NCBI GenBank assembly: GCA_018062705.1
Contig: JAGORQ010000002.1
Span: 7,450-71,449, forward strand
Reading direction: 5' to 3'
Length of the DNA: 64,000 nucleotides
Source of the DNA: Candidatus Shapirobacteria bacterium
GTDB taxonomy: Bacteria > Patescibacteriota > Microgenomatia > UBA12405
Shown: piece after piece, positions 1-37,474 of the stretch
Layout: each line of letters starts with the position of its first letter
How positions within the stretch are numbered: the stretch's first letter is position 1
Made by a program: the position numbers and the translations under genes
Notes under the pieces: generated by a model
What the model was told of the DNA's origin: nothing
Databases searched by the model: none
What the model saw: only the letters and a program-made list of their open reading frames with translations

Positions 1-519
1 ATTCTTGCCACCTCAGCTCTCCAAATTGGTGATATCGTCGTCTCCGGAGCCGATGCCCCCATCAAGGATGGTAACCGTCTTCCTCTCAAAAATATTCCCG
101 TCGGTATCCCAGTTCACGGTCTTGAATTTCAAGTTGGCAAAGGTGCTCAACTAGTCAAGTCTGCCGGTTCCGCCGCCTACATTCAATCAATTGATGGCTC
201 CAAAGCCATTATCAAACTTCCTTCAGGTGAACTCCGAATTTTTAATTCAGAATCAAGCGCCACAGTCGGTCAGGTCAGCAATGCCGATCATAGCAATATC
301 AAGTTAACCAAAGCCGGTGACTCTCGTCATCGGGGTATTCGTCCCACCGTTCGCGGTGTGGCTCAAAATCCTCACTCCCATCCACACGGAGGTGGTGAAG
401 GTCGCTCCAGCATCGGTATGAATCCCAAGACTCCCTGGGGTAAGCCAGCCATGGGCAAGCGGACTCGTTCTCGCAAAAATAAATCTAACAAGTTAATCGT
501 TCAACGGAGAAAGAAGTAA
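1..519 (+). CDS. rplB: 50S ribosomal protein L2, C-terminal part (5' end outside window)
   Basis: Frame 1 is open from position 1; translation ...HRGIRPTVRGVAQNPHSHPHGGGEGRSSIGMNPKTPWGKPAMGKRTRSRK... matches the L2 C-terminus; TAA at 517-519. Confidence 0.9.
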   Translation: MLATSALQIGDIVVSGADAPIKDGNRLPLKNIPVGIPVHGLEFQVGKGAQLVKSAGSAAYIQSIDGSKAIIKLPSGELRIFNSESSATVGQVSNADHSNIKLTKAGDSRHRGIRPTVRGVAQNPHSHPHGGGEGRSSIGMNPKTPWGKPAMGKRTRSRKNKSNKLIVQRRKK

Positions 520-580
520 AATTTAAACATTAAACCATTGATTAAATGGTTTAATGATAAATGATAAATTCTTAATAAAA
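520..580. repeat. R1 ribosomal-operon intergenic element, copy 1 (short)
   Basis: aaacattaaaccattg...attaaatggtttaatgataaatgataaatt between rplB and rpsS. Confidence 0.7.
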
Positions 581-853
581 ATGTCCCGCTCATCCAAAAA
601 AGGTCCTTATCTCGATGCCAACATTTTAGATAAATTAAAAAAAGGTGTCACTGGTCCTATCAAAACCTGGGCTCGTAAAAGCCAAATTGCTCCTGAATAT
701 GTAGGCAAAACTTTTGCAGTTCACAACGGCAAAAAATTCATTGACGTCTATGTCACAGAAGATATGGTTGGTCATTACCTCGGCGAATTTTCCTCAACTC
801 GCACCTTCAAAGGTCATGGTCGTATCGTTAAAAGAGTTATTGAAAAAACTTAA
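581..853 (+). CDS. rpsS: 30S ribosomal protein S19
   Basis: [10 protein letters not shown]...[34 protein letters not shown]; the track ORF starts at 554 inside the repeat, and the ATG at 581 gives the canonical N-terminus. Confidence 0.9.
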
Positions 854-856
854 TCT

Positions 857-1297
857 ATGGCTACTACTATTAAAAAAACTACGGTTACTAAAAAATCTTC
901 TGCTTCCAAAGTAGGGGCTTCGCTGGCCGAAGCCCGTCCAGCCCAAACCACCAAGTCAATCAAATACTCCCATTCTAATTTGAAGGTCTCGCCCCGCAAA
1001 CTTCGTGTGTTAACTTCTGATATTAAAAAAATGGCTCCAGCACCAGCTCTTGCTCGGCTTCAGTTTACCAATACCAATGCCGGTCGTTTACTTCATGCCT
1101 GTCTCAAAACCGCTATCGCCAACGCCAAGAGTCAAAACATTCTCCCCGACACACTCAAATTTACTGAGGTTAGAGTCGACGAAGGTCAAAAGATTAAACG
1201 TATGGACAAATCTCATGGTTCTCGTTTTGCCCGCGGTATCATCATCAAACGTCACTCTCGCCTAAATATAATTTTATCTGGTACAATACAAAGTTAA
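857..1297 (+). CDS. rplV: 50S ribosomal protein L22 with N-terminal extension containing an in-frame R2 hairpin repeat
   Basis: SPRKLRVLTSDIKKMAPAPALARLQFTN...ANAKSQN L22 core; the N-terminal 40 aa include SKVGASLAEA encoded by repeat 908-935. Confidence 0.85.
   Translation: MATTIKKTTVTKKSSASKVGASLAEARPAQTTKSIKYSHSNLKVSPRKLRVLTSDIKKMAPAPALARLQFTNTNAGRLLHACLKTAIANAKSQNILPDTLKFTEVRVDEGQKIKRMDKSHGSRFARGIIIKRHSRLNIILSGTIQS
908..935. repeat. R2 palindromic hairpin, coding subtype, in frame in rplV
   Basis: aaagtaggggcttcgctggccgaagccc. Confidence 0.8.
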
Positions 1298-1409
1298 AAA
1301 AATTTAACCATTAAACCATTTATCATTTTTCATTGAAAATAAAAGAATAAAATATAATTGAATCAATGGTTAAATGGTTCAATGATAAATGAAAAATTCT
1401 TCATAAAGT
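1298..1409. repeat. R1 element, copy 2 (full)
   Basis: aatttaaccattaaaccatttatcatttttcattgaaaa...caatggttaaatggttcaatgataaatgaaaaatt. Confidence 0.85.
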
Positions 1410-2051
1410 ATGGGCAACAAAGTTAATCCAATCGGTTTCAGACTCGAAACAGTCAAAAATAGTCCAGAATGGCAATCTTCTTGGTATGCCAATTCCAAAA
1501 AATACTCCGTCTATCTCGGCGAGGACAAAAAGATCAGAGATTTTATCCAAAAGAAATTAGCTTCTGCTGGTATCGTTTCTACTCGAATTGAGCGTTCTAC
1601 CAAAAAAATGAAAATAATTTTAGTCGTATCCCGACCCGGTTTGGTCATTGGACGTGGTGGAAAAGAATTGGAAATTCTCAAAAAAGAATTGCTCAAATTC
1701 CTGACTCCAGTCTCTGGTAAACAATCACTTGATATCCAAGTTGAAGAATTCAAATATGCCGATCTCTCAGCCAAACTAATTGCCGAAAAAATAGCTTTCC
1801 AACTAGTCAAACGCATGCCCTATCGTCGAGTTGTCCTTTCCACCATGGAAAAAACCATGAGTAGTGGAGCCAAGGGTATCAAAATCCAATTAGGTGGACG
1901 TATCAATGGTGCCGAAATTAGTCGTCGCGAAAAGTTTTCCCAAGGTAAAGTTCCTCTCTCAACTATCAGATCAAAAATTGATTATGCTGAATGTCCTGCG
2001 CTCACTCGCTCAGGTTATATCGGTGTTAAAGTTTACCTATGCTTAGCATAA
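1410..2051 (+). CDS. rpsC: 30S ribosomal protein S3
   Basis: MGNKVNPIGFRL hallmark, KH domain; position after L22. Confidence 0.92.
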   Translation: MGNKVNPIGFRLETVKNSPEWQSSWYANSKKYSVYLGEDKKIRDFIQKKLASAGIVSTRIERSTKKMKIILVVSRPGLVIGRGGKELEILKKELLKFLTPVSGKQSLDIQVEEFKYADLSAKLIAEKIAFQLVKRMPYRRVVLSTMEKTMSSGAKGIKIQLGGRINGAEISRREKFSQGKVPLSTIRSKIDYAECPALTRSGYIGVKVYLCLA

Positions 2052-2162
2052 ATTTAACCATTAAACCATTTATCATTTTTCATTGAAAACAAAAGAATAA
2101 GTAAATAATTGAATCAATGGTTAAATGGTTCAATGTTACAATGATAAATTTTTCAAATAATT
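2052..2162. repeat. R1 element, copy 3 (full)
   Basis: Near-identical to copy 2. Confidence 0.85.
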
Positions 2163-2567
2163 ATGCTACAACCTTCAAGAACAAAATATCGTAAACAATT
2201 CCGTGGCCGGATGCGCGGTCTTTCTCAAGGTCATTCAGTTGAGTTTGGTGAATATGGTCTCAAATCAACCGAATGTGGCTGGTTAACTGCCAATCAAATT
2301 GAAGCCGCTCGTCGCGCTATTGCTCATGCCACCAAAAGAAATGGTCGTATGTGGTGCCGAGTATTTCCTGACAAACCATTTACCGAAAAAGGCGCTGGCG
2401 CTCCATTAGGTGCTGGCAAGGGTGATGTCAAAGGTTATGTTTGTGTCGTCAAGCCAGGCCGGGTAATGTTTGAGATTAGTGGTGTGACTGCCGACGAAGC
2501 CAAAATCGCGATGCGTTTGGCTGCCGCTAAATTACCAGTTGTTTCCAAATTTGTTACTCGTATTTAA
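2163..2567 (+). CDS. rplP: 50S ribosomal protein L16
   Basis: MLQPSRTKYRKQFRGRMRG...; operon order. Confidence 0.92.
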   Translation: MLQPSRTKYRKQFRGRMRGLSQGHSVEFGEYGLKSTECGWLTANQIEAARRAIAHATKRNGRMWCRVFPDKPFTEKGAGAPLGAGKGDVKGYVCVVKPGRVMFEISGVTADEAKIAMRLAAAKLPVVSKFVTRI

Positions 2568-2578
2568 TCCTAGATTTT

Positions 2579-2776
2579 ATGAAAAAAACTGATAAAATTT
2601 CCTACAGACAAAAGGCTCCTGCAGAATTGACCAAATTATTGGCCGATTCAAAAAAGCGTTTGGTCGAAACTCGTGCCAAACAATCAACTGGCAACCTCAA
2701 AGACACCTCCGTCTTCAAAAAAATAAAATACGAGATAAATTATATCTTGACCCTTCTTACTCAAAATGGAAAATAA
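2579..2776 (+). CDS. rpmC: 50S ribosomal protein L29
   Basis: 65 aa, L29-like helical protein between L16 and S17. Confidence 0.8.
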   Translation: MKKTDKISYRQKAPAELTKLLADSKKRLVETRAKQSTGNLKDTSVFKKIKYEINYILTLLTQNGK

Positions 2777-3032
2777 TACAGGCAAAACATTCACCGGTAT
2801 AGTCACTTCAGACAAAATGAACAACACCATTGTTGTTACCTTAAGCTACACCTTCCGCCATCCTAAATACAAAAAAATCGTTAAGAAGAATAAAAAAATC
2901 TATTCTGAAAATAATTTATCCGCCAAAACTGGTGACACTGTTACCGTTCGGGAAACTCGTCCTTTATCCAAACTCAAAAGATTTACCACCGTTACTATCG
3001 TTAAGAAAGGAGTTGAAGTCGATCAGATATAA
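2766..3032 (+). CDS. rpsQ: 30S ribosomal protein S17
   Basis: GIVTSDKMNNTIVVTL...TGDTVTVRETRPLSKLKRF; 11-nt overlap with rpmC. Confidence 0.9.
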   Translation: MENNTGKTFTGIVTSDKMNNTIVVTLSYTFRHPKYKKIVKKNKKIYSENNLSAKTGDTVTVRETRPLSKLKRFTTVTIVKKGVEVDQI

Positions 3033-3095
3033 TATATCTTCAACCATTCCAATGGTTAAATGATAAATGATAAATGATAAATTTTTCAAATAATT
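3033..3095. repeat. R1 element, copy 4 (right-half only)
   Basis: ccaatggttaaatgataaatgataaatgataaatttttcaaataatt. Confidence 0.6.
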
Positions 3096-3464
3096 ATGTT
3101 ACAACTTCGCTCATTCATCAAACCTGCCGACAACTGCGGTGCCAAGTCACTCCAGATTATGCATGTCTACAAAGGTAGTTTTCACAAAAAAGGTACCATT
3201 GGTGATATTGTCCTAGCTATTGTCAAAGAGGCTATTCCGACTGGATTAGTCAAGAAAAAAGAAAAAGTCAAAGTTGTTATTGTCCGCACCAAAAAAGAAG
3301 TTCGTCGTGCCGATGGTAGTTATATCCGTTTTTCGGATAATGCCGGTGTGGTTATCGACAATCAAAACAATCCTCGTGGCACTCGTATTTTTGGGCCAAT
3401 CGCTCGTGAAATCAAAGATTTAGGTTTTAATAAAATTGCCTCGATGGCCAAGGAGGTCTACTAA
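3096..3464 (+). CDS. rplN: 50S ribosomal protein L14
   Basis: MLQLRSFIKPADNCGAKSLQI...; L14 signature. Confidence 0.92.
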   Translation: MLQLRSFIKPADNCGAKSLQIMHVYKGSFHKKGTIGDIVLAIVKEAIPTGLVKKKEKVKVVIVRTKKEVRRADGSYIRFSDNAGVVIDNQNNPRGTRIFGPIAREIKDLGFNKIASMAKEVY

Positions 3465-3466
3465 CT

Positions 3467-3787
3467 ATGAAATTACACAAAGGTGATATCGTCAAAGTTC
3501 TCATCGGCAAAGACAAAGGCCGCGAAGGTGAAATCCTCCAAGCTTTTCCCAAAAAAGGTCAAGTTTTAGTCAAGGGTCTCAATATTTTCAAAAAACATCT
3601 CAAAGCTACCCAAAACCAAGCTGGTAGCATTATCCAAAAAGAACGTCCTTTTGTCACTTCCAAAGTCGCTCTAGTCTGTCCTCAATGCAAAAAAACTACT
3701 CGTGTTGGTTACCAAATCGACAAAGAAGGCAACAAATATCGTGTTTGCAAAAAATGTCATCAACTCATTAATACTAAAACCAAATAA
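3467..3787 (+). CDS. rplX: 50S ribosomal protein L24 with C-terminal Cys4 zinc-ribbon extension
   Basis: KGDIVKVLIGKDKGREGEI KOW motif; C-terminus has CPQC...CKKC. Confidence 0.88.
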   Translation: MKLHKGDIVKVLIGKDKGREGEILQAFPKKGQVLVKGLNIFKKHLKATQNQAGSIIQKERPFVTSKVALVCPQCKKTTRVGYQIDKEGNKYRVCKKCHQLINTKTK

Positions 3788-3789
3788 TT

Positions 3790-4326
3790 ATGGCCATTAC
3801 CAAAGTCCAACAATCAGTCACCGAGAATCTCAAAAAGTTGTTGCCCAAACACAACCTCAATGCCTTGCCCAAACTAACCAAGGTAGTTCTCAATTATCGA
3901 ATTTCCGAAGGTCGCGATAGTCAAGAAAATCTCAATAATGCACTCGCCGAAATTACTGCCATCGCCGGTCAAGTTCCCAAATTATGTAAATCAAAAACTT
4001 CTATCGCCAACTTCAAACTTCGTGAAGGCGAACCTTTGGCCTACAAGGTCACTCTTCGCGACAAAAGAATGTACGATTTTGTTGAAAAACTTTTCAATTT
4101 AGTTTTACCTCGTCTTCGCGACTTCAAAGGCATGCCTCTAAGTTCATTTGATAATGAAGGCAATTACAACCTAGTGATTCGTGATCAGACCTATTTTCCC
4201 GAGATTAATTTAGACAAGGTCACCAAAATTCGTTCAGTCCAAGTCACACTTTGTATTTCTTCCTCTTCAAAAGACGAATCAAAAATGTTATTATCCACCC
4301 TAGGTTTTCCGTTTGAGAAAATCTAA
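3790..4326 (+). CDS. rplE: 50S ribosomal protein L5
   Basis: L5 signature ...[30 protein letters not shown]... Confidence 0.92.
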
Positions 4327-4343
4327 TTTTTAAATTTAATTTA

Positions 4344-4529
4344 ATGGCCAATTTAGCAAAAAAAATCCGCGAAACCAAAAAACTCAACTATTCAGTTAGA
4401 CATCACAACCGTTGTCAACTCTGTGGTCGACCTCGTGGTTTTATTCGTTTATTTGGACTTTGCCGACTTTGTTTTCGCAAATTGGCTCACACTGGAGTTT
4501 TACCAGGTGTCAAAAAATCCAGTTGGTAA
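4344..4529 (+). CDS. rpsZ: 30S ribosomal protein S14 type Z (zinc-binding)
   Basis: 61 aa, CQLCGR...CRLC zinc-ribbon form of S14. Confidence 0.9.
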
Positions 4530-4535
4530 ATTATT

Positions 4536-4922
4536 ATGATTACTTCACTCACCACCGATTTTATTATCAGAATCAAAAATAGCGCTCTCGCTGGACGGAA
4601 GAGTTTTAAGGCTCCTTCATCCAAGTTCAATCGAAGCCTAGCCGAAACCCTCAAACGTAATGGTTTTGTCTCAGCCTATGCTGTGTCCGAAGATTCTCGA
4701 ACTATGACGGTTGATTTTGCCCTAAACAACGATGAACCAAAAGTTTCCGGAGTCAAGTTATTTTCCAAACCTGGTCGTCGCTGGTACGAAACAGCCCTTT
4801 CCCTCCCTTGGGGTCAATCAAAAGAATCCTTAATTATAGTTTCAACTAGTAGCGGTGTTATGTCCCAACGTGAAGCCAAAAAACTTGGCATCGGTGGCGA
4901 AATTATCGCTGAGATTTATTAA
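4536..4922 (+). CDS. rpsH: 30S ribosomal protein S8
   Basis: TDFIIRIKNSALAGRKSF...; operon order. Confidence 0.9.
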   Translation: MITSLTTDFIIRIKNSALAGRKSFKAPSSKFNRSLAETLKRNGFVSAYAVSEDSRTMTVDFALNNDEPKVSGVKLFSKPGRRWYETALSLPWGQSKESLIIVSTSSGVMSQREAKKLGIGGEIIAEIY

Positions 4923-5037
4923 AAGAATTTAACCATTAAACCATTTATCATTTTTCATTGAAAATATAAAAATAAAACAAAAACTTGAATCAATTGCTAA
5001 ATGGTTCAATGTTACAATGATAAATTTTTTTTAAATT
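4923..5037. repeat. R1 element, copy 5 (full)
   Basis: aatttaaccattaaaccatttatcatttttcattgaaaat...gctaaatggttcaatgttacaatgataaatt. Confidence 0.85.
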
Positions 5038-5577
5038 ATGTCTAGAATCGGTCGAAATCCTATCACTATCCCCGCCAACGTCACTGTTACCGTCACTGGT
5101 CGCACAGTCACCGTTGTTGGACCACTTGGTACTCTCAACTTGGCCTTACCTCTCAAAATTAATGTCGAGGTCCGCGACGGTATTGTTTATGTTACTCGCG
5201 TCTCTGAAGATAAAAAAGTCAAAGCATGTCACGGATCAACTCGAGCTCATATCCAAAACATGGTCACTGGTGTCGTCACTCCCTGGAAAAAAGAAATGGA
5301 AATCAGAGGCACTGGTTACAAGTTCACCCTTCAAGGCAACAAATTAGTTGTCAATGCTGGCTACATCCATACAGTTGATGTCGTCGCCCCCACCGGTATA
5401 ACTTTTACTGTCCCAGATGACTCCAAACTAACCATTACTGGTACCGACAAAACAGTTGTTGGTCAAGTCGGTAGCAATATTCGTAAAATCCGCAAACCTG
5501 AACCTTACAAAGGCAAAGGTATCCGTTATCTCAATGAATTTATCAAATTAAAAGCCGGTAAAACCGCCAAAGCCTAA
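5038..5577 (+). CDS. rplF: 50S ribosomal protein L6
   Basis: MSRIGRNPITIP...; two L6 repeats. Confidence 0.92.
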   Translation: MSRIGRNPITIPANVTVTVTGRTVTVVGPLGTLNLALPLKINVEVRDGIVYVTRVSEDKKVKACHGSTRAHIQNMVTGVVTPWKKEMEIRGTGYKFTLQGNKLVVNAGYIHTVDVVAPTGITFTVPDDSKLTITGTDKTVVGQVGSNIRKIRKPEPYKGKGIRYLNEFIKLKAGKTAKA

Positions 5578-5692
5578 GGCACAATTTAACCATTAAACCA
5601 TTTATCATTTTTCATTGAAAACAAAAGAATAAAATATAATTGAATCAATGGTTAAATGGTTCAATGATAAATGAAAAATTTTTTATAAAATT
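5578..5692. repeat. R1 element, copy 6 (full)
   Basis: Near-identical to copy 2. Confidence 0.85.
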
Positions 5693-6034
5693 ATGATCCA
5701 CGATCGAACCCTCAAACGACAAAAAAGAGTCCGCGCCAAAATCTCCGGAAATCTCGGTATTCCTCGCCTTAGTGTTTTCCGTAGCAACACTCATTTATGG
5801 GCCCAAGTTATCGACGATAAACACGGCAAAACTCTTGCCTCGGCTACTACCAAAAACCTCAAAGACATCAAAGGCACCAAAACTGAAAAAGCCATTGCTT
5901 TAGGTGAAGTTATTGCCAAATCTGCTCTCAAAGCCAACGTTATCAAAGTTCGTTTCGACAGAGGGTCCTACAAGTATCATGGACGCGTCAAGGCCTTAGC
6001 CGACTCTGCCCGCGAACATGGCCTTAAATTTTAA
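5693..6034 (+). CDS. rplR: 50S ribosomal protein L18
   Basis: [18 protein letters not shown]...[17 protein letters not shown]. Confidence 0.92.
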
Positions 6035-6130
6035 TATATTTAACCATTTAACCATTTATCATTTAACCAATAATTAAAAACATTTAATCAATAATTAAAT
6101 GGTTCAATGTTACAATGGTTCAATAATTTT
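6035..6130. repeat. R1 element, copy 7 (divergent)
   Basis: tttaaccatttaaccatttatcatttaacc...attaaatggttcaatgttacaatggttcaataatttt. Confidence 0.7.
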
Positions 6131-6607
6131 ATGTCCGATTTTGAAAATAAACAAATTAGAAAAATGGATCGTCCTGAGTCCGAATTTACCGACAAAGTCG
6201 TCGAAATCAAACGTGTTTCCAAAAAAACCAAAGGTGGAAATCAAATCGGTTTTACTGCCTTAGTCGTCACCGGTGATAAAAAATCCCGTGTCGGTGTCGG
6301 TCATGCCAAGGCCAAAAGTGTGGCCGATGCCATTCAAAAAGCCATACGCCGTGGTCGTCGCGATATGCTGACTGTCAAAACCAACAATGGCACAATTATT
6401 GGCGAAATCAAATTCAAATTCAAAGGTTCGATTGTTCTACTTCGTCCTGGTAAACCAGGTTCTGGTCTAATTGCTGGCGGTCCTGTCCGTTCTGTAGTTG
6501 AGTTGGCTGGAATCAAAGACATTGCCTCCAAAATCATCGGTTCCAAAACCAAATCAATTAACGTTTGGGCAACCCTAAAAGCCCTCACCCTTTTACAAAA
6601 AAATTAA
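6131..6607 (+). CDS. rpsE: 30S ribosomal protein S5
   Basis: VVEIKRVSKKTKGGNQIGFTALVVTGD...; the track ORF starts at 6107 inside repeat, so ATG 6131 is preferred; L30 does not follow. Confidence 0.88.
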   Translation: MSDFENKQIRKMDRPESEFTDKVVEIKRVSKKTKGGNQIGFTALVVTGDKKSRVGVGHAKAKSVADAIQKAIRRGRRDMLTVKTNNGTIIGEIKFKFKGSIVLLRPGKPGSGLIAGGPVRSVVELAGIKDIASKIIGSKTKSINVWATLKALTLLQKN

Positions 6608-6704
6608 CCATTTATCATTTTTCATTTATCAAAAAATAAAAAAAATAACCAATCATCAAATCAATGAAAAATGGTTAAATGATAAATGATAAATTCTTTC
6701 TAAT
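6608..6704. repeat. R1 element, copy 8 (divergent)
   Basis: aaccatttatcatttttcatttatc...caatgaaaaatggttaaatgataaatgataaatt. Confidence 0.7.
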
Positions 6705-7124
6705 ATGGATATTCTAAACAATCTAACTCAAACAGTTGATAAACCCGCTCGTCGTCTCGGTCGGGGATATGGCTCCAAAAAAGGTGGTCACACTTCATCT
6801 CGTGGCTCCAAGGGAGACAAGGTCAGAGGCAAAACCAAAATCACTTTCGATGGTACCAAAATCAAAAAAGGCTGGATTAAGCGCACCCCCTTCCTTCGAG
6901 GCAAACACCGAACTCTCAAAATGAGTATCAATGCAATTTTTCAACTCGAACAAATCGACAAAATGTTCAAATCAGGTGACACCGTAGATGCCAAAACCCT
7001 CAATTGTGCCACTGCCAAAATTTTGTCAAAAGGTGATATTACCAAAGCTCTCAACTTCCGTGGAGTCAAAATGTCTGAATCAGCCAAGGCCAAAATTATC
7101 GCAGCAGGTGGTAAGATAGACTAA
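6705..7124 (+). CDS. rplO: 50S ribosomal protein L15
   Basis: [23 protein letters not shown]...; directly follows S5. Confidence 0.9.
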
Positions 7125-8404
7125 TGAATCAGTTCATCAAGTCGCTCTCAATTTATTTTGAAGGCTTCAAAACACCGCTACTTCGTCATAAACTTTTATT
7201 CACTTTAGGAATTCTTATCGCCTTCCGTTTCTTGGCCCACGTTCCCGTGCCCGGCGTCAACCTAGACTTGCTTCGCAGTTTTTTTGCCCAAAATCAGGTA
7301 CTCTCTTTACTCAACATTTTCTCTGGCGGTACTTTAGCCAACTTTTCCATAGTTGCTTTGGGTCTAAACCCTTATATCAATGCTTCGGTCATGTTGCAAT
7401 TGCTCACCCTAGTCTCTCCCAAGTTAGAAGAATTAAGTAAAGAAGGTGAGTATGGTCGTGCCAAAATAAACCAATATACTCGAATCATCACCATCCCTCT
7501 GGCAATTGTTCAGTCTTTGGGTATGTATGGCATTCTCAAATCACAAAACATTATTGGTGGCCTTAGTCCATTGTTATTAGTCGCCTTGGTTAGCACCATG
7601 GTTGCCGGCACCATGATTATGATTTTCTTAGGCGAACTTATCAACCAATATGGAATTGGTAACGGTATTTCTGTTATCATCTTCGCCGGTATCATTGCTC
7701 AACTGCCGGTTAGTTTTGTTCAAACTCTCAGTGTCACCGACTTTAGTAACCCCCAAAACACAATTAATTTAATAATTTTTGCCGCTGTAGCCATCGCCCT
7801 TGTTTTTGGAATAGTTATGGTTGAGGAAGCAGTTCTTCGCATTCCGGTTCATTACGCCAAGCGCGGTCAGGTTACCTATCTTCCCATCAAAGTCGATACG
7901 GCTGGTGTCATGCCAATAATTTTTGCAGTCTCTCTGGCTACCGCCCCCTCGTTAATTGGTCAGTTCCTGTCCAAGCTTTCTAATCCAGCTATTGCCCAAG
8001 CCGGCCTTACTCTATCCCGTTTTTTCCGAACCGATAGTGCCCTATATATACTATTTTATTTCCTGCTCGTTATCGGTTTTACTTATGTTTACACTTCGGT
8101 AGTTTTCAAACCCAAAGACATTGCCGACGAACTCCGCAAATCTGGTGGCTTTATCCCCGGTATCCGCCCTGGTCAGTCCACCGAAAAACGCTTGGAATAT
8201 TTAATTAACCGGGTCATTGCTATCGGTGCCTTGTTTCTCGGTGTCATTGCCGTCTTCCCCTCAATTATCCAAAGTATGACCGGCATCACCACTCTCACCA
8301 TCGGCGGTACTTCGGTCCTGATTGCTGTCTCTGTCGTCATCGAGCTCACTCGCAAAATCGAAAACGTCGTCCAAACATATAACTACGACAAACTAACTTA
8401 TTAA
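7124..8404 (+). CDS. secY: preprotein translocase subunit SecY
   Basis: 426 aa, 10 TM, SecY motifs, follows L15. Confidence 0.93.
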
Positions 8405-8419
8405 CACTTTTGTATCATT

Positions 8420-8755
8420 TTGAAAAAAATATTTTTTTCAATCTTAATAATAGTCTCACTTTTTGTTGTTTCATTAGCTTATACATTCGGCTATTCGTTA
8501 AAACAAAATAATCCCAATCCAGACAAAGGTTGTTTTGTAGGAGGCTGTAATGGTGGCGATATTTGTAGCAATACCAAGGATATTTGGGGCAACTGTGTTA
8601 GTCGAAATGATTTTTGTTACAAAGTTGATAAGTGCGCCATGGTTTCCCAAAATAATTGTCAATTTCGACCAACTTTCAACTCATCAATTTGTTGGGTTGC
8701 CCAAGCACCAGTATTATTAGTCCAAAAAGTTATTGAGTTTATAAACAATATCTAA
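8420..8755 (+). CDS. small Cys-rich secreted protein (10 Cys), hypothetical; TTG start
   Basis: Signal peptide MKKIFFSILIIVSLFVVSLA then CFVGGCNGGDIC...; sits between secY and adk, which is an unusual place. Confidence 0.5.
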   Translation: MKKIFFSILIIVSLFVVSLAYTFGYSLKQNNPNPDKGCFVGGCNGGDICSNTKDIWGNCVSRNDFCYKVDKCAMVSQNNCQFRPTFNSSICWVAQAPVLLVQKVIEFINNI

Positions 8756-8758
8756 AAT

Positions 8759-9343
8759 ATGCCGTTAAACCTTTTTATCATTGGACCGTCCGGCTGTGGT
8801 AAAACTACCCAGGCCAAGCTGATTGCTGAAAAATACAAAATTGATCACTTGTCCATGGGTCAGCTTCTCCGCGATGAAATCACCAAAGGTAGTGGTTTTG
8901 GAATTGAAGCCAAAAAATATATCGACGATGGCAAGCTCGTCCCCGATGATTTAGTCTTTGATGTTCTGATTACCAAGCTCAAGGCTCTCAATTTCGATAA
9001 TTTTATAATTGACGGTTTTCCCCGGGTCTTAAACCAAGGTCGGATTATTGAATATTATCTTCGCAAAAATAACATGCCGATTACTGCCCTAATTCACTTA
9101 AGTGTCACCTTTGCTGAAATTTCTGCCCGAAGGGCTAAAATGGGGGATTCATTTCAAGATAAAACCCGCACCGACAATTCCCCCGAAGATATTGCTAGTC
9201 GTCAAAAATTCTATGATGACAATATCGAAGGTATCCGCGACTATTTCACCCGCAAAAGCGAATTTATCGATATCGACGGCAACCGCCCCATCGAGCCCAT
9301 ATTTGCCGATGTTATTAAGGCAATAGATAAATTAAGAAAGTAA
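8759..9343 (+). CDS. adk: adenylate kinase
   Basis: IIGPSGCGKTTQAKLIAEKY P-loop; LID/NMP regions. Confidence 0.9.
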   Translation: MPLNLFIIGPSGCGKTTQAKLIAEKYKIDHLSMGQLLRDEITKGSGFGIEAKKYIDDGKLVPDDLVFDVLITKLKALNFDNFIIDGFPRVLNQGRIIEYYLRKNNMPITALIHLSVTFAEISARRAKMGDSFQDKTRTDNSPEDIASRQKFYDDNIEGIRDYFTRKSEFIDIDGNRPIEPIFADVIKAIDKLRK

Positions 9344-9369
9344 AGTAGGGGCTCGACTTGCTCGAGCCC
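9341..9369. repeat. R2 hairpin, intergenic subtype, after adk stop
   Basis: taaagtaggggctcgacttgctcgagccc. Confidence 0.8.
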
Positions 9370-9378
9370 AAAAATCAA

Positions 9379-9780
9379 ATGCTCGAAATTCCTGAAGAAA
9401 TTAAAAAACTCTGCGAAAAGTCCATTATCGCTTTTTCGACTTGCTCACCAACCGGACAACCAAACACTGTGGCTGTAGCTTGTGCTGTTGCCATTTCTCC
9501 AAATCAAGTTTTAGTCACCGATAATTTTTTCAATAAAACCAGACAAAATCTAATAAACAATCAACAGGTTTCACTAACATTCTGGAATTTAGAACAAAGT
9601 TTAGACGGTGCCGGTTACCAATTTAAAGGTACGGCTCAAGTAATTACGACCGGAGAGTTAAAAGAAAAAGTTGATCAAATGGAATGTAATCAAGGTTTAG
9701 CTCACAAAGCGGCTATACTTGTAACCATCACAGAAATCTGGGATTTAGCCAATCCGCATTTAATTTGTCAAGAAACTTAA
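9379..9780 (+). CDS. pyridoxamine 5'-phosphate oxidase-like FMN-binding split-barrel protein (putative)
   Basis: AFSTCSPTGQPNTVAVACAVAISPNQVLVTDNFFNKTRQNL; the track start 9358 lies inside the R2 repeat, so ATG 9379 is preferred. Confidence 0.5.
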   Translation: MLEIPEEIKKLCEKSIIAFSTCSPTGQPNTVAVACAVAISPNQVLVTDNFFNKTRQNLINNQQVSLTFWNLEQSLDGAGYQFKGTAQVITTGELKEKVDQMECNQGLAHKAAILVTITEIWDLANPHLICQET

Positions 9781-9849
9781 GTCACTTAAGTAACCCAAGC
9801 AACTTACGACTTTATCCCGTATAATAAACCGAATTACAAATTTCAATTT

Positions 9850-10053
9850 ATGAAAGAACCAACCGTCAAAGCTACTGTTACAGAAGTCCTCCCCAACCAA
9901 CTTTTTCGGGTGGAACTCGAAGACAAAAGATTAATTGTTGCCTACCTTGCAGGCAAACTCAAGATGAATCACATTCGTTGCCTCGCTGGCGACAAAGTTA
10001 GTGTCGTTTTGTCTCCCACCGAAGACAAAGCCCGCATTGTTTATCGGGGATAA
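9850..10053 (+). CDS. infA: translation initiation factor IF-1
   Basis: 67 aa S1-like OB fold, ...IRCLAGDKVSVVLSPTEDKARIVYRG. Confidence 0.9.
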   Translation: MKEPTVKATVTEVLPNQLFRVELEDKRLIVAYLAGKLKMNHIRCLAGDKVSVVLSPTEDKARIVYRG

Positions 10054-10072
10054 TTTACCCCAAATTTACTCT

Positions 10073-10101
10073 TTGATATTAACTAGCATTTAGGTTACAA
10101 T
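10073..10101 (+). promoter_or_regulatory. sigma70-like promoter TTGATA-17-TACAAT upstream of rpmJ-rpsM-rpsK-rpsD-rpoA-rplQ
   Basis: ttgata (10073-10078), 17-nt spacer, tacaat (10096-10101). Confidence 0.45.
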
Positions 10102-10174
10102 ATCCAAGTCTTTATCGCTTATCTAAAAAATGCCATCATTTAAATTAATAATTGCTTCTAATTCGGCACTGCCG

Positions 10175-10217
10175 TCCCCTTGCCCTGTCAAGGGAAAGGG
10201 CTAGGGTTAGGGTTTTA
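10175..10217. repeat. R3 hairpin family (degenerate copy) in 5' UTR of the rpmJ operon
   Basis: tccccttgccctgtcaagggaaagggctagggttagggtttta. Confidence 0.6.
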
Positions 10218-10219
10218 AT

Positions 10220-10333
10220 ATGAAGGTCAAATCAAGCATCAAACGTCGCTGCAAAAACTGTCAAGTCGTTATTCGTAACGGAGTTAGACGGATTATTTGT
10301 TCCACCAAAAAACATACCCAAAAACAGGGTTAA
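10220..10333 (+). CDS. rpmJ: 50S ribosomal protein L36
   Basis: MKVKSSIKRRCKNCQVVIRNGVRRIICSTKKHTQKQG, 37 aa; below the track's 60-aa cutoff, found by hand. Confidence 0.9.
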   Translation: MKVKSSIKRRCKNCQVVIRNGVRRIICSTKKHTQKQG

Positions 10334-10339
10334 TTTTCC

Positions 10340-10756
10340 ATGAGAATCTCAGGTGTCGAAATCCCCGATAATGAAAGAGCCGAAGTCAGTTTGACTCGCT
10401 TTTATGGTATCGGTCCCAAAAACGTTATTGCCTTAGCCAAGGCCGCCAAAATCGACCTCAACACTCGTACCAAGGATTTTTCCCGCGACGATATTGGTAA
10501 TTTAATGAAAGCTATCGAAGAATTCAAAGTTGAAGGCGATCTGAAGAAAGAAGTCCGCGAAAATATTGATCGTCTCAAGGCTATTAAATGTTATCGTGGT
10601 ATCCGCCACATTGTTTCCCTTCCAGCTCGTGGTCAACGCACCAAAAGTAATGCTCGTACTCGCAAGGGTAAGAAGAAAACTGTCGGTTCATTAACCAAAG
10701 AAGCCTGGGCAAAAATCGAAGCTCAACAAAAAGCAGCTACTATTGCCAAAAAATAA
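10340..10756 (+). CDS. rpsM: 30S ribosomal protein S13
   Basis: MRISGVEIPDNERAEVSLTRFYGIGPKN... Confidence 0.92.
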   Translation: MRISGVEIPDNERAEVSLTRFYGIGPKNVIALAKAAKIDLNTRTKDFSRDDIGNLMKAIEEFKVEGDLKKEVRENIDRLKAIKCYRGIRHIVSLPARGQRTKSNARTRKGKKKTVGSLTKEAWAKIEAQQKAATIAKK

Positions 10757-10762
10757 AATCAC

Positions 10763-11176
10763 ATGACAGAAGAAATCAAAAAAACCACCAAATCAAAAGT
10801 TCCTTCAAAGAAGAAGGTAGTTAAGAGCATTGCCGAGGCCACTCTTACCGTCAAATCTAGTTTCAACAATACCATTGTTACTGTTTCCGACATGAAAGGA
10901 AACACTCTCACTTGGTCTTCAGCTGGTCATGCTGGATTCAAGGGTGCCCGCAAGTCCACCCCGTATGCCGCTACCACCGCCATCGAGAAAGCACTCGAGG
11001 CTGCTAGACCCTATGGAATCAAAAAATTGGCTGTATATCTCAAAGGACCCGGTGTTGGTCGCGATGCCGCGCTTCGCTTCCTCCGTGCCAAAAGAGAATA
11101 CGATGTTGACATTATTGCTGATGTCACTCCAATTCCCCACAACGGTCCTCGTCCTTCAAAGGCCCGTAGAGTTTAA
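10763..11176 (+). CDS. rpsK: 30S ribosomal protein S11
   Basis: ...AGHAGFKGARKSTPYAATTAIEKALEAARPYGIK... Confidence 0.92.
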   Translation: MTEEIKKTTKSKVPSKKKVVKSIAEATLTVKSSFNNTIVTVSDMKGNTLTWSSAGHAGFKGARKSTPYAATTAIEKALEAARPYGIKKLAVYLKGPGVGRDAALRFLRAKREYDVDIIADVTPIPHNGPRPSKARRV

Positions 11177-11284
11177 AAATTAAACCATTTAACCATTTTT
11201 CATTTATCATTCAATAAATATTCAAATAACTAAAACCCCCAATGGTTCAATGGTTAAATGAAAAATGATAAATTTTTCTAATTT
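11177..11284. repeat. R1 element, copy 9
   Basis: aaaccatttaaccatttttcatttatcatt...caatggttcaatggttaaatgaaaaatgataaattttt between rpsK and rpsD. Confidence 0.75.
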
Positions 11285-11917
11285 ATGTCAAGAATCACAT
11301 TAGATAGTAAATGCCGACTCTGTCGCGCCGAGGGTTGCAAACTCTATCTCAAAGGTGCTCGCTGTTTGTCAGCCAAGTGTCCAATTGAGAAAAAAGGTGC
11401 AGTTCTCCCCGGTATGCATGGTGCCAAGCGTGTCAAAAAGCCAACCGATTACGGTATTCAGCTTCGTGCCAAGCAAAAAGCCAAACGTATTTACGGCGTC
11501 CAAGAAACTCAGTTCCGCAATTACTTCCTCAAAGCCAAGGCTCTCAAGGGTCTTTTGAGCGACAACTTTTTAGTTCTCCTCGAGCGACGCTTAGACAATG
11601 TGGTTTATCTTGCCGGTTTGGCCGAGTCCCGTTCCCAATCCAAACAACTCATTTCCCATGGTCATGTTTTGGTCAATGGTAAGCGCCTATCAATCGCCTC
11701 ACATTCTCTCAAAGTTAATGATGTCGTCACTTTAGACAAAAAAACCATTGCTCGCACTGCCGATTCAATGAAATTGGTCGAAAAAGACTTCAAAGTCAGC
11801 AGCTGGCTTGAACTAGATAAATCAAAATATACTGTTTCGGTCAAGTCACTGCCTTCAACAGACGACTTCAACCGCAACATTGATATCAATTTAATCATTG
11901 AATATTATTCCCGATAA
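11285..11917 (+). CDS. rpsD: 30S ribosomal protein S4 (zinc-ribbon N-terminus)
   Basis: CRLCRAEGCKLYLKGARCLSAKCP...; S4 domain. Confidence 0.9.
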   Translation: MSRITLDSKCRLCRAEGCKLYLKGARCLSAKCPIEKKGAVLPGMHGAKRVKKPTDYGIQLRAKQKAKRIYGVQETQFRNYFLKAKALKGLLSDNFLVLLERRLDNVVYLAGLAESRSQSKQLISHGHVLVNGKRLSIASHSLKVNDVVTLDKKTIARTADSMKLVEKDFKVSSWLELDKSKYTVSVKSLPSTDDFNRNIDINLIIEYYSR

Positions 11918-12849: not shown

Positions 12850-12901
12850 AGTCATCTAACTTGATGAACTTTACAAACTTGATAAACTTTACAAACTTTT
12901 T

Positions 12902-14998: not shown

Positions 14999-15000
14999 CA

Positions 15001-15029
15001 TTGACAAAGTGACCATATTTTGCTAGAAT
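15001..15029 (+). promoter_or_regulatory. sigma70-like promoter TTGACA-17-TAGAAT
   Basis: ttgaca 15001-15006, 17-nt spacer, tagaat 15024-15029. Confidence 0.6.
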
Positions 15030-15034
15030 TGTTA

Positions 15035-15180
15035 CGAATAACCAAATCACACAATAGCTGTGTAATCACGGTTATTCATGTTCTTCTGATATTCTTCCGA
15101 CTTAGTCGGAATAAATCAGAAATGCGAATCTGGCTTCGCCAGGTTGCACTTTAAAAAATCGCGGATAGGATCTTCCTTTG
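15035..15180 (+). ncRNA. conserved structured 5' leader, copy A (unclassified candidate cis-regulatory RNA)
   Basis: Hairpins gaataacc...ggttattc, acaca-atagc-tgtgt, ccgac-ttag-tcgg, ctgg-cttcg-ccag, then aaaaaatcgcggatagg; paralogous to 16230-16345 with compensatory stem changes. Confidence 0.5.
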
Positions 15181-15286
15181 AAACTTTGGGCTTACGAATC
15201 TGAAATCGGAGTAATCCAATCAGAACTTCAACCGTTAGGTTGATTTCAGTCAGTAAGTCCAAAATATATTTCAAGAGGAGTTAGAC

Positions 15287-16054
15287 ATGTTAAACAAAGT
15301 GCTCGGCAAGATCGAACGTGGTTATGCCAAGTTTGTGGCGTGGATGATGGTTCTACTCGGAATTCTGGTTCAGTTCCAGCAATTAAATGCGTTAGGTCTG
15401 TTCAAGATTGCCGACTGGTTCGAAAGTGGAATCATCTCGCAAAGTTGGGGAGTTGCCATTGCCAATAAGCTTTACATTCTCGAACAGTTGTTATACCAAC
15501 TGCAAGGGATGATCTCAAGCTTGATGGCTATTTTCGGCTGGTACTCCGCCCGCAGTTTCGCTGGTTGGTTCCTGGTTATCACTGGGTCCGTTCTGCTTAT
15601 CAGCAAAATGAAGGCGACGGACGAAAGTCCCAAACAGGTAAATTACATCTTGGTGACACTCAAGTTTTTCAACTTGTTTGTAGCAGGCGTGCTCGTATTT
15701 GTCTGTTACTTCACTGTCACCATGTTGTATTTTCCTGATTTGGCGTTCTCGGTAGAGAGTATGTGGAACAGTTGGTTCGGAATATTCAACACTCTAGACG
15801 CCATGGTGATCTACTGCCTGGTTGCTCTCGGCTCCGCGAACCTCCTGATTATTGGAGAGTTCTATAAGCAACCAAAAGCCGGTTGGGTAATTTGGTGTTG
15901 CAATATTTTGATGGGCATAATCTGGATTGTTATGGAGACGCCATCGAATGCTGTTTCACTCGACTCTGCCATGATCTTGCTTGTCTTTACCACCGCCTTC
16001 CACACAATTTCTTCACTGACCATCATGTTCACGGGAGCACCGGAAACCAAATAA
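15287..16054 (+). CDS. hypothetical polytopic membrane protein (about 6-7 TM)
   Basis: 255 aa, hydrophobic; SD agaggag 8 nt upstream; preceded by structured leader A. Confidence 0.6.
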   Translation: MLNKVLGKIERGYAKFVAWMMVLLGILVQFQQLNALGLFKIADWFESGIISQSWGVAIANKLYILEQLLYQLQGMISSLMAIFGWYSARSFAGWFLVITGSVLLISKMKATDESPKQVNYILVTLKFFNLFVAGVLVFVCYFTVTMLYFPDLAFSVESMWNSWFGIFNTLDAMVIYCLVALGSANLLIIGEFYKQPKAGWVIWCCNILMGIIWIVMETPSNAVSLDSAMILLVFTTAFHTISSLTIMFTGAPETK

Positions 16055-16066
16055 ATCTATCCGCGC

Positions 16067-16135
16067 CCTCGGCACAAACTGACCTTGGTCTCCCTTCGGG
16101 GAGACCAGCGTTGGTTGTGCTGAGGAAATTTTTAT
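16067..16135 (+). terminator. long imperfect palindrome plus T-run (terminator), paralogous to 17169-17240
   Basis: cctcggcacaa...ggtctcc cttcg gggagacc...ttgtgctgagg aaatttttata. Confidence 0.6.
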
Positions 16136-16197
16136 ACAATTCACACTTATTTATTTGACATTTTTAATCTAGATTTTTGACATTTAGTCTCATAATA

Positions 16198-16226
16198 TTG
16201 AAATATTAGCAATTTATTGCTAAAAT
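16198..16226 (+). promoter_or_regulatory. sigma70-like promoter TTGAAA-17-TAAAAT
   Basis: ttgaaa 16198-16203, 17-nt spacer, taaaat 16221-16226; aligns with promoter A relative to the leader. Confidence 0.45.
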
Positions 16227-16229
16227 AGC

Positions 16230-16345
16230 CGAAATAATCAAACCATACAAACGCTGTATGATGTTGGTTATTTAAGCACTTCCCGATGCTCACTTCGTTC
16301 GTTCGGGATGGTTATCCAGCTTCGCTGGGTAGCACATTAAAAAAT
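16230..16345 (+). ncRNA. conserved structured 5' leader, copy B
   Basis: cataca-aacgc-tgtatg, cccga...tcggg, ccag-cttcg-ctgg, cacattaaaaaatcgcggataggg. Confidence 0.5.
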
Positions 16346-16440
16346 CGCGGATAGGGATTATTTTTGGACTGAAGAATTAGTTTAAACAACAACAATGTTG
16401 TTAACTATCATTCGGTCCAAAAAAGGAGAATTGTAAGAAA

Positions 16441-17160
16441 ATGAATAAGAAATTGTTTTGCGTTTTGATGGCAGGGATCTTATTCCTTGCTGCTTGTGGC
16501 ACACCTGCTACAAGTATCACCCCGACTGTTGCACCAGTTGTGGCAACAGAAACCCCCACCTCAGCCCCAACCCCTACTTTGGAGCCCACCAATACTCCCA
16601 CCCCGGAGCCCCTTTACTTCGAAATGGATCTATATCTAGCTCAAAAGCAGGACAATCAGTGGGGGATTGGTCACACAACAGAAGAGAGGTGTAAAATTAC
16701 ATTGGATGAGGATGGCAGTAATAGTGCTATCAGGAAATTTCTACTGAACTGTCAATATGATACGGAAAATTCTATTAAGTTTCCGTTTTTGGTCCAGGTA
16801 GTTCATAACGCACAGCAATCCATCGAAACAGTCATGGAAACTAGGGTGGAGCAAATAAGTGTGGTCGCCTACGACTGCACCACACTGAGAGACGGTGGGT
16901 TTCAGTCGATTTCGACTCACTTCAACGGCGCCACAACTATTGGCTTCAGTTTGATCGAAGGAAGGGGTGTATTGCATTACGACGATGCGGGCAATTCGGA
17001 GGCGAGTGAAATGGTGAACGCGACAGTTCCGTCTCTTGGTAACAATCAAGCGTATCTGTTCATCTCCTCTGATGCAAGTAACGTGTTTATCCAAATTTGG
17101 GACATCATGTGTAACGAGCAGTTGTTCCAAAAGGAGACAGTCATTATCTCCTATCCCTAG
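16441..17160 (+). CDS. lipoprotein with PT-rich linker, hypothetical
   Basis: MNKKLFCVLMAGILFLAACG lipobox; TPTPEP linker; SD aaaggag. Confidence 0.65.
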   Translation: MNKKLFCVLMAGILFLAACGTPATSITPTVAPVVATETPTSAPTPTLEPTNTPTPEPLYFEMDLYLAQKQDNQWGIGHTTEERCKITLDEDGSNSAIRKFLLNCQYDTENSIKFPFLVQVVHNAQQSIETVMETRVEQISVVAYDCTTLRDGGFQSISTHFNGATTIGFSLIEGRGVLHYDDAGNSEASEMVNATVPSLGNNQAYLFISSDASNVFIQIWDIMCNEQLFQKETVIISYP

Positions 17161-17168
17161 TCCGCACG

Positions 17169-17240
17169 CCTCGGCACAACCCAAAAATTGGGTCTCTCGA
17201 AAGAGAGACCCGATCAATGGATGTGCTGAGGAAATTTTTA
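17169..17240 (+). terminator. long imperfect palindrome plus T-run (terminator), paralog of 16067-16135
   Basis: cctcggcacaac...gggtctctc gaaa gagagaccc...atgtgctgagg aaatttttata. Confidence 0.6.
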
Positions 17241-17293
17241 TAACAACTTACATTATTTTAGAATTTAGGTTTTAGAGTTTAGAGTTTTTTGCC

Positions 17294-17452
17294 TCAAGCC
17301 TCTCCCAGTCTCTTGTTCAACTTATCCCACACAATATCCGTCAGATTATCCAGCGCGCTAATTATCACTTTTCGCTGATGTTTCGGTTTTTTCTTCTCCG
17401 CTTCTTCCAAATCAACTTTCCAGATTACTTCAATTGGTTCCTGAATTTGCAT
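17294..17452 (-). CDS. small hypothetical protein (52 aa), possible operon partner of 17470..18510
   Basis: MQIQEPIEVIWKVDLEEAEKKKPKHQRKVIISALDNLTDIVWDKLNKRLGEA; found by hand, below the track cutoff. Confidence 0.25.
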   Translation of the reverse strand: MQIQEPIEVIWKVDLEEAEKKKPKHQRKVIISALDNLTDIVWDKLNKRLGEA

Positions 17453-17469
17453 TCAATCATTATACCATC

Positions 17470-20096: not shown

Positions 20097-20156
20097 CCCC
20101 CTCTTTCGTCAAAGTCGAAGATATCGCTTCAGCGATGAGGGGGTAGGGGGAGATTT
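20097..20156. repeat. R3 hairpin (long variant with inner hairpin) after gltX
   Basis: ccccctctttcgtcaaagtcgaagatatcgcttcagcgatgagggggtagggggagattta. Confidence 0.7.
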
Positions 20157-21277: not shown

Positions 21278-21347
21278 CTACACATCTATCTAGTAGCAGT
21301 TTGAATTATCTTACTGTAAAATACGTCCATATAACTTTTTTCAATAG

Positions 21348-22382: not shown

Positions 22383-22485
22383 TGTTTGTACCCGGTTTAT
22401 CACTCTTGGTACATTTGTTAATAATTTTTGTTGGTTTTGTCGGCACCACAATCAAAAATATTTGGCAAAAAATAAATTAATCTAT

Positions 22486-32736: not shown

Positions 32737-32777
32737 TCCCCCTCCCAAATCTGGGAGGGGCAGAGGTGGGTGATTTT
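32737..32777. repeat. R3-like hairpin after the collagen-like gene
   Basis: tccccctcccaaatctgggaggggcagaggtgggtgatttt. Confidence 0.6.
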
Positions 32778-33965: not shown

Positions 33966-33969
33966 TTTT

Positions 33970-37473: not shown

Positions 37474-37474
37474 T

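Follow-up and report, generated by a model that had tools for sequence, protein, structure and literature searches.

Sense-oriented inverted repeats at the ribosomal-protein stop-start junctions of a Candidatus Shapirobacteria bacterium

Few known gene arrays are as compact and conserved as ribosomal-protein operons, and the locus described here raises the question of how one and the same repeat came to lie in nine stop-to-start gaps of such an operon and what it might do there. The DNA analysed (the window) is a 64-kb stretch from a Candidatus Shapirobacteria bacterium, a member of the Candidate Phyla Radiation (CPR; Microgenomates), with approximately 40% G+C. It contains the S10-spc-alpha cluster from the end of rplB to rplQ, rplM and rpsI, with all genes on the + strand, and its L6 and SecY proteins are identical to MBP9817294.1 and MBP9817298.1, respectively, two entries under that organism name from one 73-kb contig. 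The repeat, termed R1, most likely belongs to the small palindromic interspersed repeats and was captured as intercistronic leaders. In its more specific form this reading holds that R1 is a lineage-specific palindromic repeat resembling MITEs (transposable elements of the miniature inverted-repeat type), inserted in TAA junctions and kept only in the orientation that supplies a leader free of a Shine-Dalgarno (SD) sequence, and to this we give an even chance of being right.

Copies, placement and relatives

An earlier note on this DNA had reported one repeat family in nine gaps of the cluster, and this was confirmed. The gaps, which measure 60-115 nt, are occupied on the + strand by copies c1 (520-580, rplB/rpsS), c2 (1298-1409, rplV/rpsC), c3 (2052-2162, rpsC/rplP), c4 (3033-3095, rpsQ/rplN, at the S10/spc boundary), c5 (4923-5037, rpsH/rplF), c6 (5578-5692, rplF/rplR), c7 (6035-6130, rplR/rpsE), c8 (6608-6704, rpsE/rplO; the copy itself runs from 6604 to 6704, its first unit overlapping the rpsE stop codon at 6605-6607) and c9 (11177-11284, rpsK/rpsD). 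Two motifs, A' and B', of the four blocks in which R1 had been described (A-B on the left, A'-B' on the right) were strongly over-represented in the window: A' (AATGGTTAAATGGTT, with up to 3 mismatches) gave 46 matches as opposed to 5.6 expected, 40 of them inside the nine gaps, and B' gave 19 as opposed to 0.7 expected. A generic test for at least three consecutive NNNCATT or AATGNNN units over the 64 kb picked out the nine R1 gaps and no other place. Likewise, an nhmmer profile built from the nine-copy alignment (A1) returned nine + strand matches, with E values of 3.1e-9, 6.3e-24, 2.6e-25, 1.8e-7, 1.4e-21, 2.9e-24, 7.4e-11, 1e-13 and 8e-19 for c1 to c9 in that order (range 2.6e-25 to 1.8e-7), and nothing further of note in the 64 kb. 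R1 is not an artefact of metagenome assembly, because a contig of an independent Logan assembly (SRR11088367), which begins at the left end of c8, is 100% identical over 129 nt and so reproduces that copy exactly. R1 is a genuine inverted-repeat family.

Full copies have a common anatomy. Between the stop codon and the left arm there is a variable lead of 0-9 nt, followed by a left arm of three or four units of 7-8 nt with the form NNNCATT (AACCATT, TATCATT, TTTCATT), an A/T-rich spacer of 29-40 nt, a right arm of three to five AATGNNN units (AATGGTT, AATGATA, AATGAAA, AATGTTA) with AAATT at its end, and a U-rich tail of 2-12 nt that holds a TAA 1-5 nt ahead of the ATG. The AATG core is invariant while the three flanking bases vary, and the arms are approximately 80% A+T and consist of direct arrays of 7-8 nt units that are not self-palindromic. 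These measurements replace a spacer earlier put at about 45 nt and a right end earlier placed 12-25 nt before the start codon, since the AAATT of the right arm ends 2-12 nt from it. The sequence that had been given for a full copy fits c2, c3, c5 and c6 and does not fit c7, c8 and c9, which have diverged, or c1 and c4, which are short forms.

Similarity among the copies is uneven. In the young copies c2, c3, c5 and c6 the left arms are 100% identical and near-identity extends to the spacer, c2 and c6 being 97% identical over 107 nt, and c7, c8 and c9 keep the vocabulary of units with spacers approximately 50-64% identical to those of other copies. The short forms have a small hairpin followed by right arm and tail: c1 has a 12-bp hairpin (AACATTAAACCATT/AATGGTTTAATG), an AATGATA array and the tail CTTAATAAAA, and c4 has the hairpin AACCATTCCAATGGTT, three AATGATA units and a tail identical to that of c3. 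The left arm of c2 lies at 1305-1334 and its right arm begins at 1365 after a spacer of 30 nt, its tail ending in TAAagtATG; c3 carries TGTTACAAT in its right arm, which resembles the right arm of c5; the A' arm of c5 (AATTGCT) has two uncompensated changes. The arms of c7 form a nested palindrome, c8 contains a 19-nt inverted repeat that is 95% complementary, and c9, in which the B units are swapped on both arms, has 30-nt terminal inverted repeats, 80% complementary, that extend exactly from stop to start. This mosaic of similarities suggests, on alignment of the copies, that sequence may have been exchanged between them.

The placement of R1 within the window is restricted. All nine copies lie between two ribosomal-protein genes within 11 kb, and R1 is found at 9 of 22 ribosomal-protein starts as opposed to none of 57 other starts (Fisher p = 2e-6, an upper bound on significance, as the copies are related by descent and may exchange sequence). 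Within the cluster, no copy precedes secY, adk, infA, rpoA or the two small open reading frames (ORFs). Every copy is in the sense orientation, and profile scores were 31-89 bits for the sense strand versus 14 bits or less for the antisense strand.

The corresponding junctions of related genomes carry no such insert. No L6 closer than 76% identity was found among 5.8 billion proteins, and the comparison was made with four related lineages, identified by L6 identities of 76% (L005), 74% (L006-L008), 72% (L139) and 70% (L140), in which the R1 junctions sampled numbered four (L005, rpsH to secY), nine (L006-L008 and L140) and eight (L139). In all four, the sampled junctions of the cluster overlap or measure 13 nt or less, typically TAA, 1-5 nt and ATG, and the R1 profile found no match at any sampled orthologous junction. 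R1-free junctions of the window (for example at rplV, rpmC, rplX and rpsM) are nearly identical in nucleotides to those of L006, and at the R1 junctions the flanking codons align with those of the relatives, with the insert lying precisely between TAA and ATG. Because the sampled junctions of all four relatives are short and free of it, R1 is a derived insertion, and gain in the Shapirobacteria lineage is the parsimonious reading of these alignments. The opinion that such a repeat is unusual for a ribosomal-protein operon was borne out by the short junctions at the same places in the four lineages.

Wider searches did not extend the family. A scan of GTDB species genomes (a collection outside which the source genome lies) with the left-arm pattern gave four chance matches in unrelated organisms, three scans of viral contigs gave chance matches only, and a metagenome scan gave at least 120 single matches, mostly chance, simple heptamer satellites or N-terminal coding sequence (MKNDKW...). 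Two of the metagenome matches listed, and no others among them, are possibly related. Contig L044 has at 690-740 (- strand) a multi-unit AATG array at the 5' end of adk, the product of which is 53% identical to the Adk of the window, and contig L095 has a similar array at 460-510 (- strand) at the 5' end of a dus-like gene. Their units are AATGAAA, AATGATA and AATGGTT, and the arrays overlap coding sequence. To judge from the units, these arrays may be distantly related to the right arm of R1, and other CPR genomes may have AATG arrays where genes begin, although two cases establish no family.

Leaders, mini-ORFs and folding

The absence of SD sequences from R1-preceded genes, as had been noted, was confirmed for all nine tails, and SD sequences are used elsewhere in the genome, for example at rplX. 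The right arm contains three to five AUGs distributed over all three frames. In all nine copies, one of these AUGs opens a mini-ORF of 3-11 codons whose TAA stop lies 1-5 nt before the true start: 561-575 in c1 (MINS*, stop 5 nt before the rpsS ATG at 581), 1389-1406 in c2 (MKNSS*), 2125-2160 in c3 (11 codons, stop 2 nt before the ATG), 3067-3093 in c4, 5017-5034 in c5 (MINFF*), 5671-5688 in c6 (MKNFL*), 6115-6126 in c7 (MVQ*, stop 4 nt before the rpsE ATG at 6131), 6686-6703 in c8 (MINSF*, stop 1 nt before the ATG) and 11258-11281 in c9. In c6, a second upstream ORF ends as an ATGA overlap with the start codon. Of 33 other gene starts preceded by sizeable gaps, 3 have a comparable mini-ORF (Fisher p = 5e-7), and the probability per copy from dinucleotide shuffles of 60-nt leaders was 0.09-0.19, figures to be read with the facts that, once the array is given, approximately two-thirds of frames are open where the arm ends and that the copies are related. 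The AUG used is that of the last unit in c1, c2 and c5-c8, of the second-to-last in c4 and c9 and of the second in c3; the frame relation thus survives insertions and deletions, because both the AUG used and the length of the tail differ between copies. The mini-ORF is a newly recognised feature, predicted to be translated, which by its sequence recreates the ancestral TAA-N-ATG juxtaposition of stop and start.

This juxtaposition gives the reading of R1 as a captured MITE-like repeat its proposed mechanism. R1 would have spread by transposition through the ribosomal-protein superoperon of this Shapirobacteria lineage, entering its junctions between TAA stop and ATG start. In their ancestral state these junctions would have relied on termination-reinitiation coupling, since they were 1-5 nt long and SD-less. 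In E. coli, SD-less reinitiation falls to background at an intercistronic distance of 40 nt (PMC2268962), so that a bare insert of 60-115 nt would be expected to break such coupling. Copies would persist only in an orientation harmless or useful to the mRNA. Co-transcribed with the genes on either side, the arms would pair as an A-U hairpin of 17-30 bp that brings the upstream stop and the downstream start region together, and the right arm and tail would form the whole 5' leader of the next cistron, G-poor, SD-less and with three to five AUGs. With a mini-ORF ending 1-5 nt before the true start, ribosomes would arrive there by short-range reinitiation.

All nine copies can form a long A-U hairpin on paper, with minimum free energies (MFE) of -8.6 to -17.8 kcal/mol and 17-30 predicted pairs, of which 2-4 are G-C. 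The arms head the list of inverted repeats in the window (19-30 nt, 77-95% complementary). Folding z-scores were -2.9 to -4.8 for c1 (MFE -14.4, z -4.8), c7 (MFE -16.9, z -3.3), c8 (z -4.2) and c9. When summed over copies, the antisense strand folded more stably than the mRNA strand (-170 versus -135 kcal/mol), and for this reason the folds provide no evidence of selection on mRNA structure; the pairing potential of R1 looks like that of a DNA inverted repeat.

The proposal that R1 RNA folds as a pseudoknot, with A pairing to A' and B to B' in crossed order, can be assessed from the same sequences. The complementarity on which it was based is real in c2, c3, c5, c6 and c9, amounting to 14/15 for A/A' and 13/15 for B/B' in c2 and c6, and in c9 the two arms share the swap of B units. 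To judge from pseudoknot geometry, however, a pair of 15-bp helices with loops of 0-1 nt between them would be unable to coexist, whereas the likeness of the units makes a nested hairpin in shifted register available, and this is the MFE fold. Among the seven long copies, 93.7% of cells were paired under the nested model versus 87.8% under the crossing model, and the suggested search for covariation in A/A' and B/B' found none under either. Shuffled sequences matched or exceeded the observed values in 408 of 500 cases for percentage paired and in 460 of 500 for pairs changed on both sides, a joint swap such as that in c9 is expected by chance 1 time in 2, nesting is plain in c7 and c8, and B is absent from c1 and c4. 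The pseudoknot is therefore highly improbable.

Origin and function weighed

Of the roles that had been suggested for R1, that of a MITE turned into an initiation region fits best. MITEs are under approximately 500 bp and non-coding, and R1 measures 61-115 nt with element-confined ORFs of at most 11 codons, although some upstream AUGs read into or through the downstream gene. Like MITEs, R1 has terminal inverted repeats, which in c9 reach both ends of the gap, and differs in presence and absence between related genomes. MITEs are also known to reside inside transcripts and to act there (PMC10969869).

Several observations weigh against this reading. Dispersal in both orientations, as expected of MITEs, is not seen within the 64 kb, where the nine copies share one orientation and 11 kb, and it would be odd for a freely transposing element to be absent from the other 53 kb of the window, which has more than 30 gaps of at least 40 nt. 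The probability of a single orientation in nine copies (0.5^9 = 0.002), like other nine-of-nine statistics, overstates their independence because they share ancestry and may exchange sequence. TAA flanks both sides of all nine copies, but as a target duplication this is weak evidence, since the DNA is AT-rich and the right TAA lies in a homologous tail, common to the copies. In c4 the left boundary is separated from the stop codon by 12 nt, as opposed to 0-5 nt in c1 and the seven full copies. The window contains no transposase or autonomous partner, which would be an insertion sequence with ends matching those of R1 (AATTTAACCATT-type), other than a serine recombinase in a restriction-modification island. 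Strict orientation, restriction to ribosomal-protein junctions, arms made of unit arrays and the lack of a visible partner thus do not fit a freely moving MITE. As to the leader, hairpin z-scores are modest (about -0.9 to -2.3) in c2-c6, that is, in the young full copies and c4, the mean unpaired probability of start regions is approximately 0.50 at R1 versus 0.53 at R1-free junctions of the cluster, and several of the other upstream AUGs read out of frame through the true start.

Processing-site, promoter and binding-array readings are compatible with a mobile origin, and none has positive evidence beyond the anatomy of the repeat. If the A-U hairpin were an RNase III-type cleavage site or a 3'-end stabiliser, the transcript of approximately 30 genes would be cut into defined units and the translation and decay of neighbours uncoupled. 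The 17-30 pairs per copy are adequate in length for RNase III (about 20 bp or more), R1 is strictly intercistronic and sense, the hairpin remains strong in c7-c9 (z -2.9 to -4.2) despite the divergence of their spacers, and Correia elements are cut by RNase III within transcripts (PMC10969869). The lack of covariation, the uncompensated changes in c5, the better folding of the antisense strand and the ability of relatives to manage without such sites all argue the other way, and we regard cleavage, together with its effect on the transcript, as possible but unlikely. An internal promoter in each copy, perhaps with a weak terminator, that splits transcription of the superoperon is improbable. 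The motif TGTTACAAT is a good extended -10 but occurs only in c3, c5 and c7; the clearest sigma-70-type site of the window (10073-10101) uses TACAAT; c4 and c6 have weak 9/12 consensus matches, each right arm is followed by a U-rich run, and Correia and other MITEs carry outward promoters. Against these points, sigma-70-like sites are not enriched (36 versus 28.5 +/- 4.8 expected), in six copies no -10 combines A at -11 with T at -7, and TTGAAT lies 21-22 nt from the -10 rather than 16-18 nt. No + strand terminator-like site was found in any copy, the stems being almost pure A-U, and an intrinsic terminator or attenuator, with a G+C-rich stem and U tract on the sense strand, was therefore not found in R1; moreover, unequal transcription would disturb the stoichiometry of ribosomal proteins. 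Rfam searches gave R1 no match either at the gathering threshold or, over 400-11500, at a permissive one (E <= 1), a tRNA being the one Rfam match of the window, and with the promoter and terminator scans they left the promoter, attenuator and autoregulatory-site roles that had been suggested without positive evidence.

The periodic units invite a further explanation, in which the AUG units with their 7-8 nt spacing are bound as an array by a ribosomal protein or an oligomeric RNA-binding protein. Protein bound at the right arm would compete with the pairing of that arm to the left one and so tune ribosomal-protein translation co-ordinately. This would account for the three to five AAUG units per right arm, the complementary array upstream, the invariant core with variable flanks and the confinement to ribosomal-protein junctions, and is also consistent with the AATG arrays at the 5' ends of adk and dus in the CPR-like contigs L044 and L095. 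The arrangement presumably resembles the spaced GAG/UAG triplets bound by TRAP and the UAG-N4 repeats bound by HutP. No candidate protein is known, however, the relatives lack R1, slippage of a heptamer could by itself yield an array, and most metagenome matches listed are chance or N-terminal coding sequence, so that this explanation is distinctly improbable. A related possibility, rather improbable in our estimation, is that R1 is a domesticated, operon-specific module in which AUG heptads serve as a ribosome landing pad or regulator site, the mini-ORF hands ribosomes over and the upstream array gates the process. Such a module would replace stop-start coupling and would be a new way of setting ribosomal-protein stoichiometry in an SD-poor CPR bacterium.

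The ribosomal-protein operons of this clade use SD-less stop-start junctions of 1-5 nt, and nine inserts of 60-115 nt in them amount to a natural experiment: either coupled translation tolerates long structured spacers, or R1 brings a hairpin bridge, an AUG array and a mini-ORF of its own. The family thus makes testable both how translation starts in an SD-poor, uncultured CPR bacterium and how mobile repeats enter essential transcripts. Should R1 be merely a selfish repeat, it would follow that even the ribosomal-protein operon is not immune to invasion.

Other features of the window and known systems

Several other repeats were noted in the window. The rpoA/rplQ gap (12850-12901) contains five tandem 9-nt units (AACTTGATR/AACTTTACA) that run up to the rplQ ATG, where the relatives have 1-30 nt; it represents a second tandem-array expansion of a stop-start gap, unrelated to R1. 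Further A/T-rich arrays with a 7-8 nt period adjoin gene ends, namely four copies of a 47-nt family of CTTAAAT units (32776-32822, 33968-34014, 55802-55848 and 56786-56832) and arrays of TAAATTT and TTGTAGAT units (39893-39993, 52104-52150 and 54300-54383). This genome seems to be generally given to leaders with arrays of short period. Family D7 (9341-9370, 37474-37505, 37635-37664, 54690-54732, 55176-55206, 61359-61393 and 62921-62951, with a weak match within rplV at 890-936) resembles repetitive extragenic palindromic (REP) elements or a terminator module. The window has a REP-like GTAG-hairpin family distinct from R1. G+C-rich intergenic hairpins of the form CCCCCTC...GAGGGGG(T/A)AGGGGGAG (families D12 and D15) occur at 10170-10214, 20118-20156, 32745-32775, 38085-38123, 38670-38710 and 53315-53353, and a hairpin of this type was also seen in metagenome contig L095 at about 520-560.

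Among the genes of the cluster, rpmD (L30) is missing between rpsE and rplO (6607-6705), as is usual for CPR. Between secY and adk there is a cysteine-rich ORF of 111 aa (8420-8755) without Pfam match. The interval from adk to infA holds a PNPOx-like gene (9358-9780); in L007 and L140 it contains an unannotated ORF, while in L139 infA follows adk directly. Beyond the cluster, tandem paralogues without Pfam match (15287-16054 and 16441-17160, within 14999-17469) each have a non-coding leader of 290-390 nt; the leaders share a 42-nt block (15128-15169 and 16314-16355; 86% identical), and downstream of each gene there is a similar hairpin with GTGCTGAGGAAATTTTTATA. The leaders have no Rfam match and may represent an uncharacterised leader RNA. 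Positions 31371-32705 encode a collagen triple-helix repeat protein, and large predicted proteins contain several long Pro/Thr-rich repeat regions (TPTNTPT-type) at 20500-25000 and 62600-62700. A stretch of low G+C content (0.31-0.37) at 42168-48353, adjoining a tRNA at 42168-42238, holds on the - strand genes for a large serine recombinase (42179-43672), an Eco47II-type restriction endonuclease (43672-44415) and a C5 cytosine methyltransferase (44420-45679), together with two proteins without Pfam match, and is probably an integrated mobile restriction-modification island.

Among known systems, integron attC sites were considered on account of a resemblance of ATTTAAC/GTTAAAT to R''/R'. This identification was rejected because the motifs are not terminal and their order is not nested, and it was further ruled out by a gene order that matches that of the R1-free relatives. 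The sequence of R1 is unrelated to any Rfam or known family. Correia elements of Neisseria (CREE/NEMIS) and other MITEs (ERIC, RUP and BOX-like) are, as is R1, approximately 100 bp, non-coding and AT-rich with terminal inverted repeats. They too occur as multiple near-identical copies, both intergenic and within transcription units, with short A/T repeats at their flanks, and are missing at the orthologous sites in relatives. They are known to affect promoter activity and the processing or stability of mRNA (PMC10969869). R1 differs from them in that its arms, instead of being a unique terminal inverted repeat, are composed of 7-8 nt unit arrays, and in that the visible copies have one orientation, lie at ribosomal-protein stop-start junctions and span 11 kb, with none in the other 53 kb. 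REP/BIME and REPIN elements are likewise intergenic palindromic repeats, often within operons, and REPINs in particular consist of two inverted units with a spacer that form a long hairpin. REP units, however, are short G+C-rich palindromes with a conserved tetranucleotide that travel with a RAYT gene, and R1 was not assigned to them, its arms being A/T-rich and not self-palindromic and no RAYT-like protein having been found among the 20 window proteins scanned.

Two further systems resemble R1 in what its copies might do in the mRNA. The RNase III sites of T7 early mRNA are, like R1, a repeated sense-only hairpin between successive cistrons of one long transcript, but they are cleaved in experiments and conserved among relatives, whereas R1 shows neither covariation nor a folding bias towards the sense strand. 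In termination-reinitiation junctions, the stop codon is followed after 1-5 nt by an SD-less start, as in the TAAnnnATG of the relatives and at the end of each R1 copy, with the difference that the upstream ORF at R1 is a frame of 3-11 codons within the repeat rather than the preceding gene.

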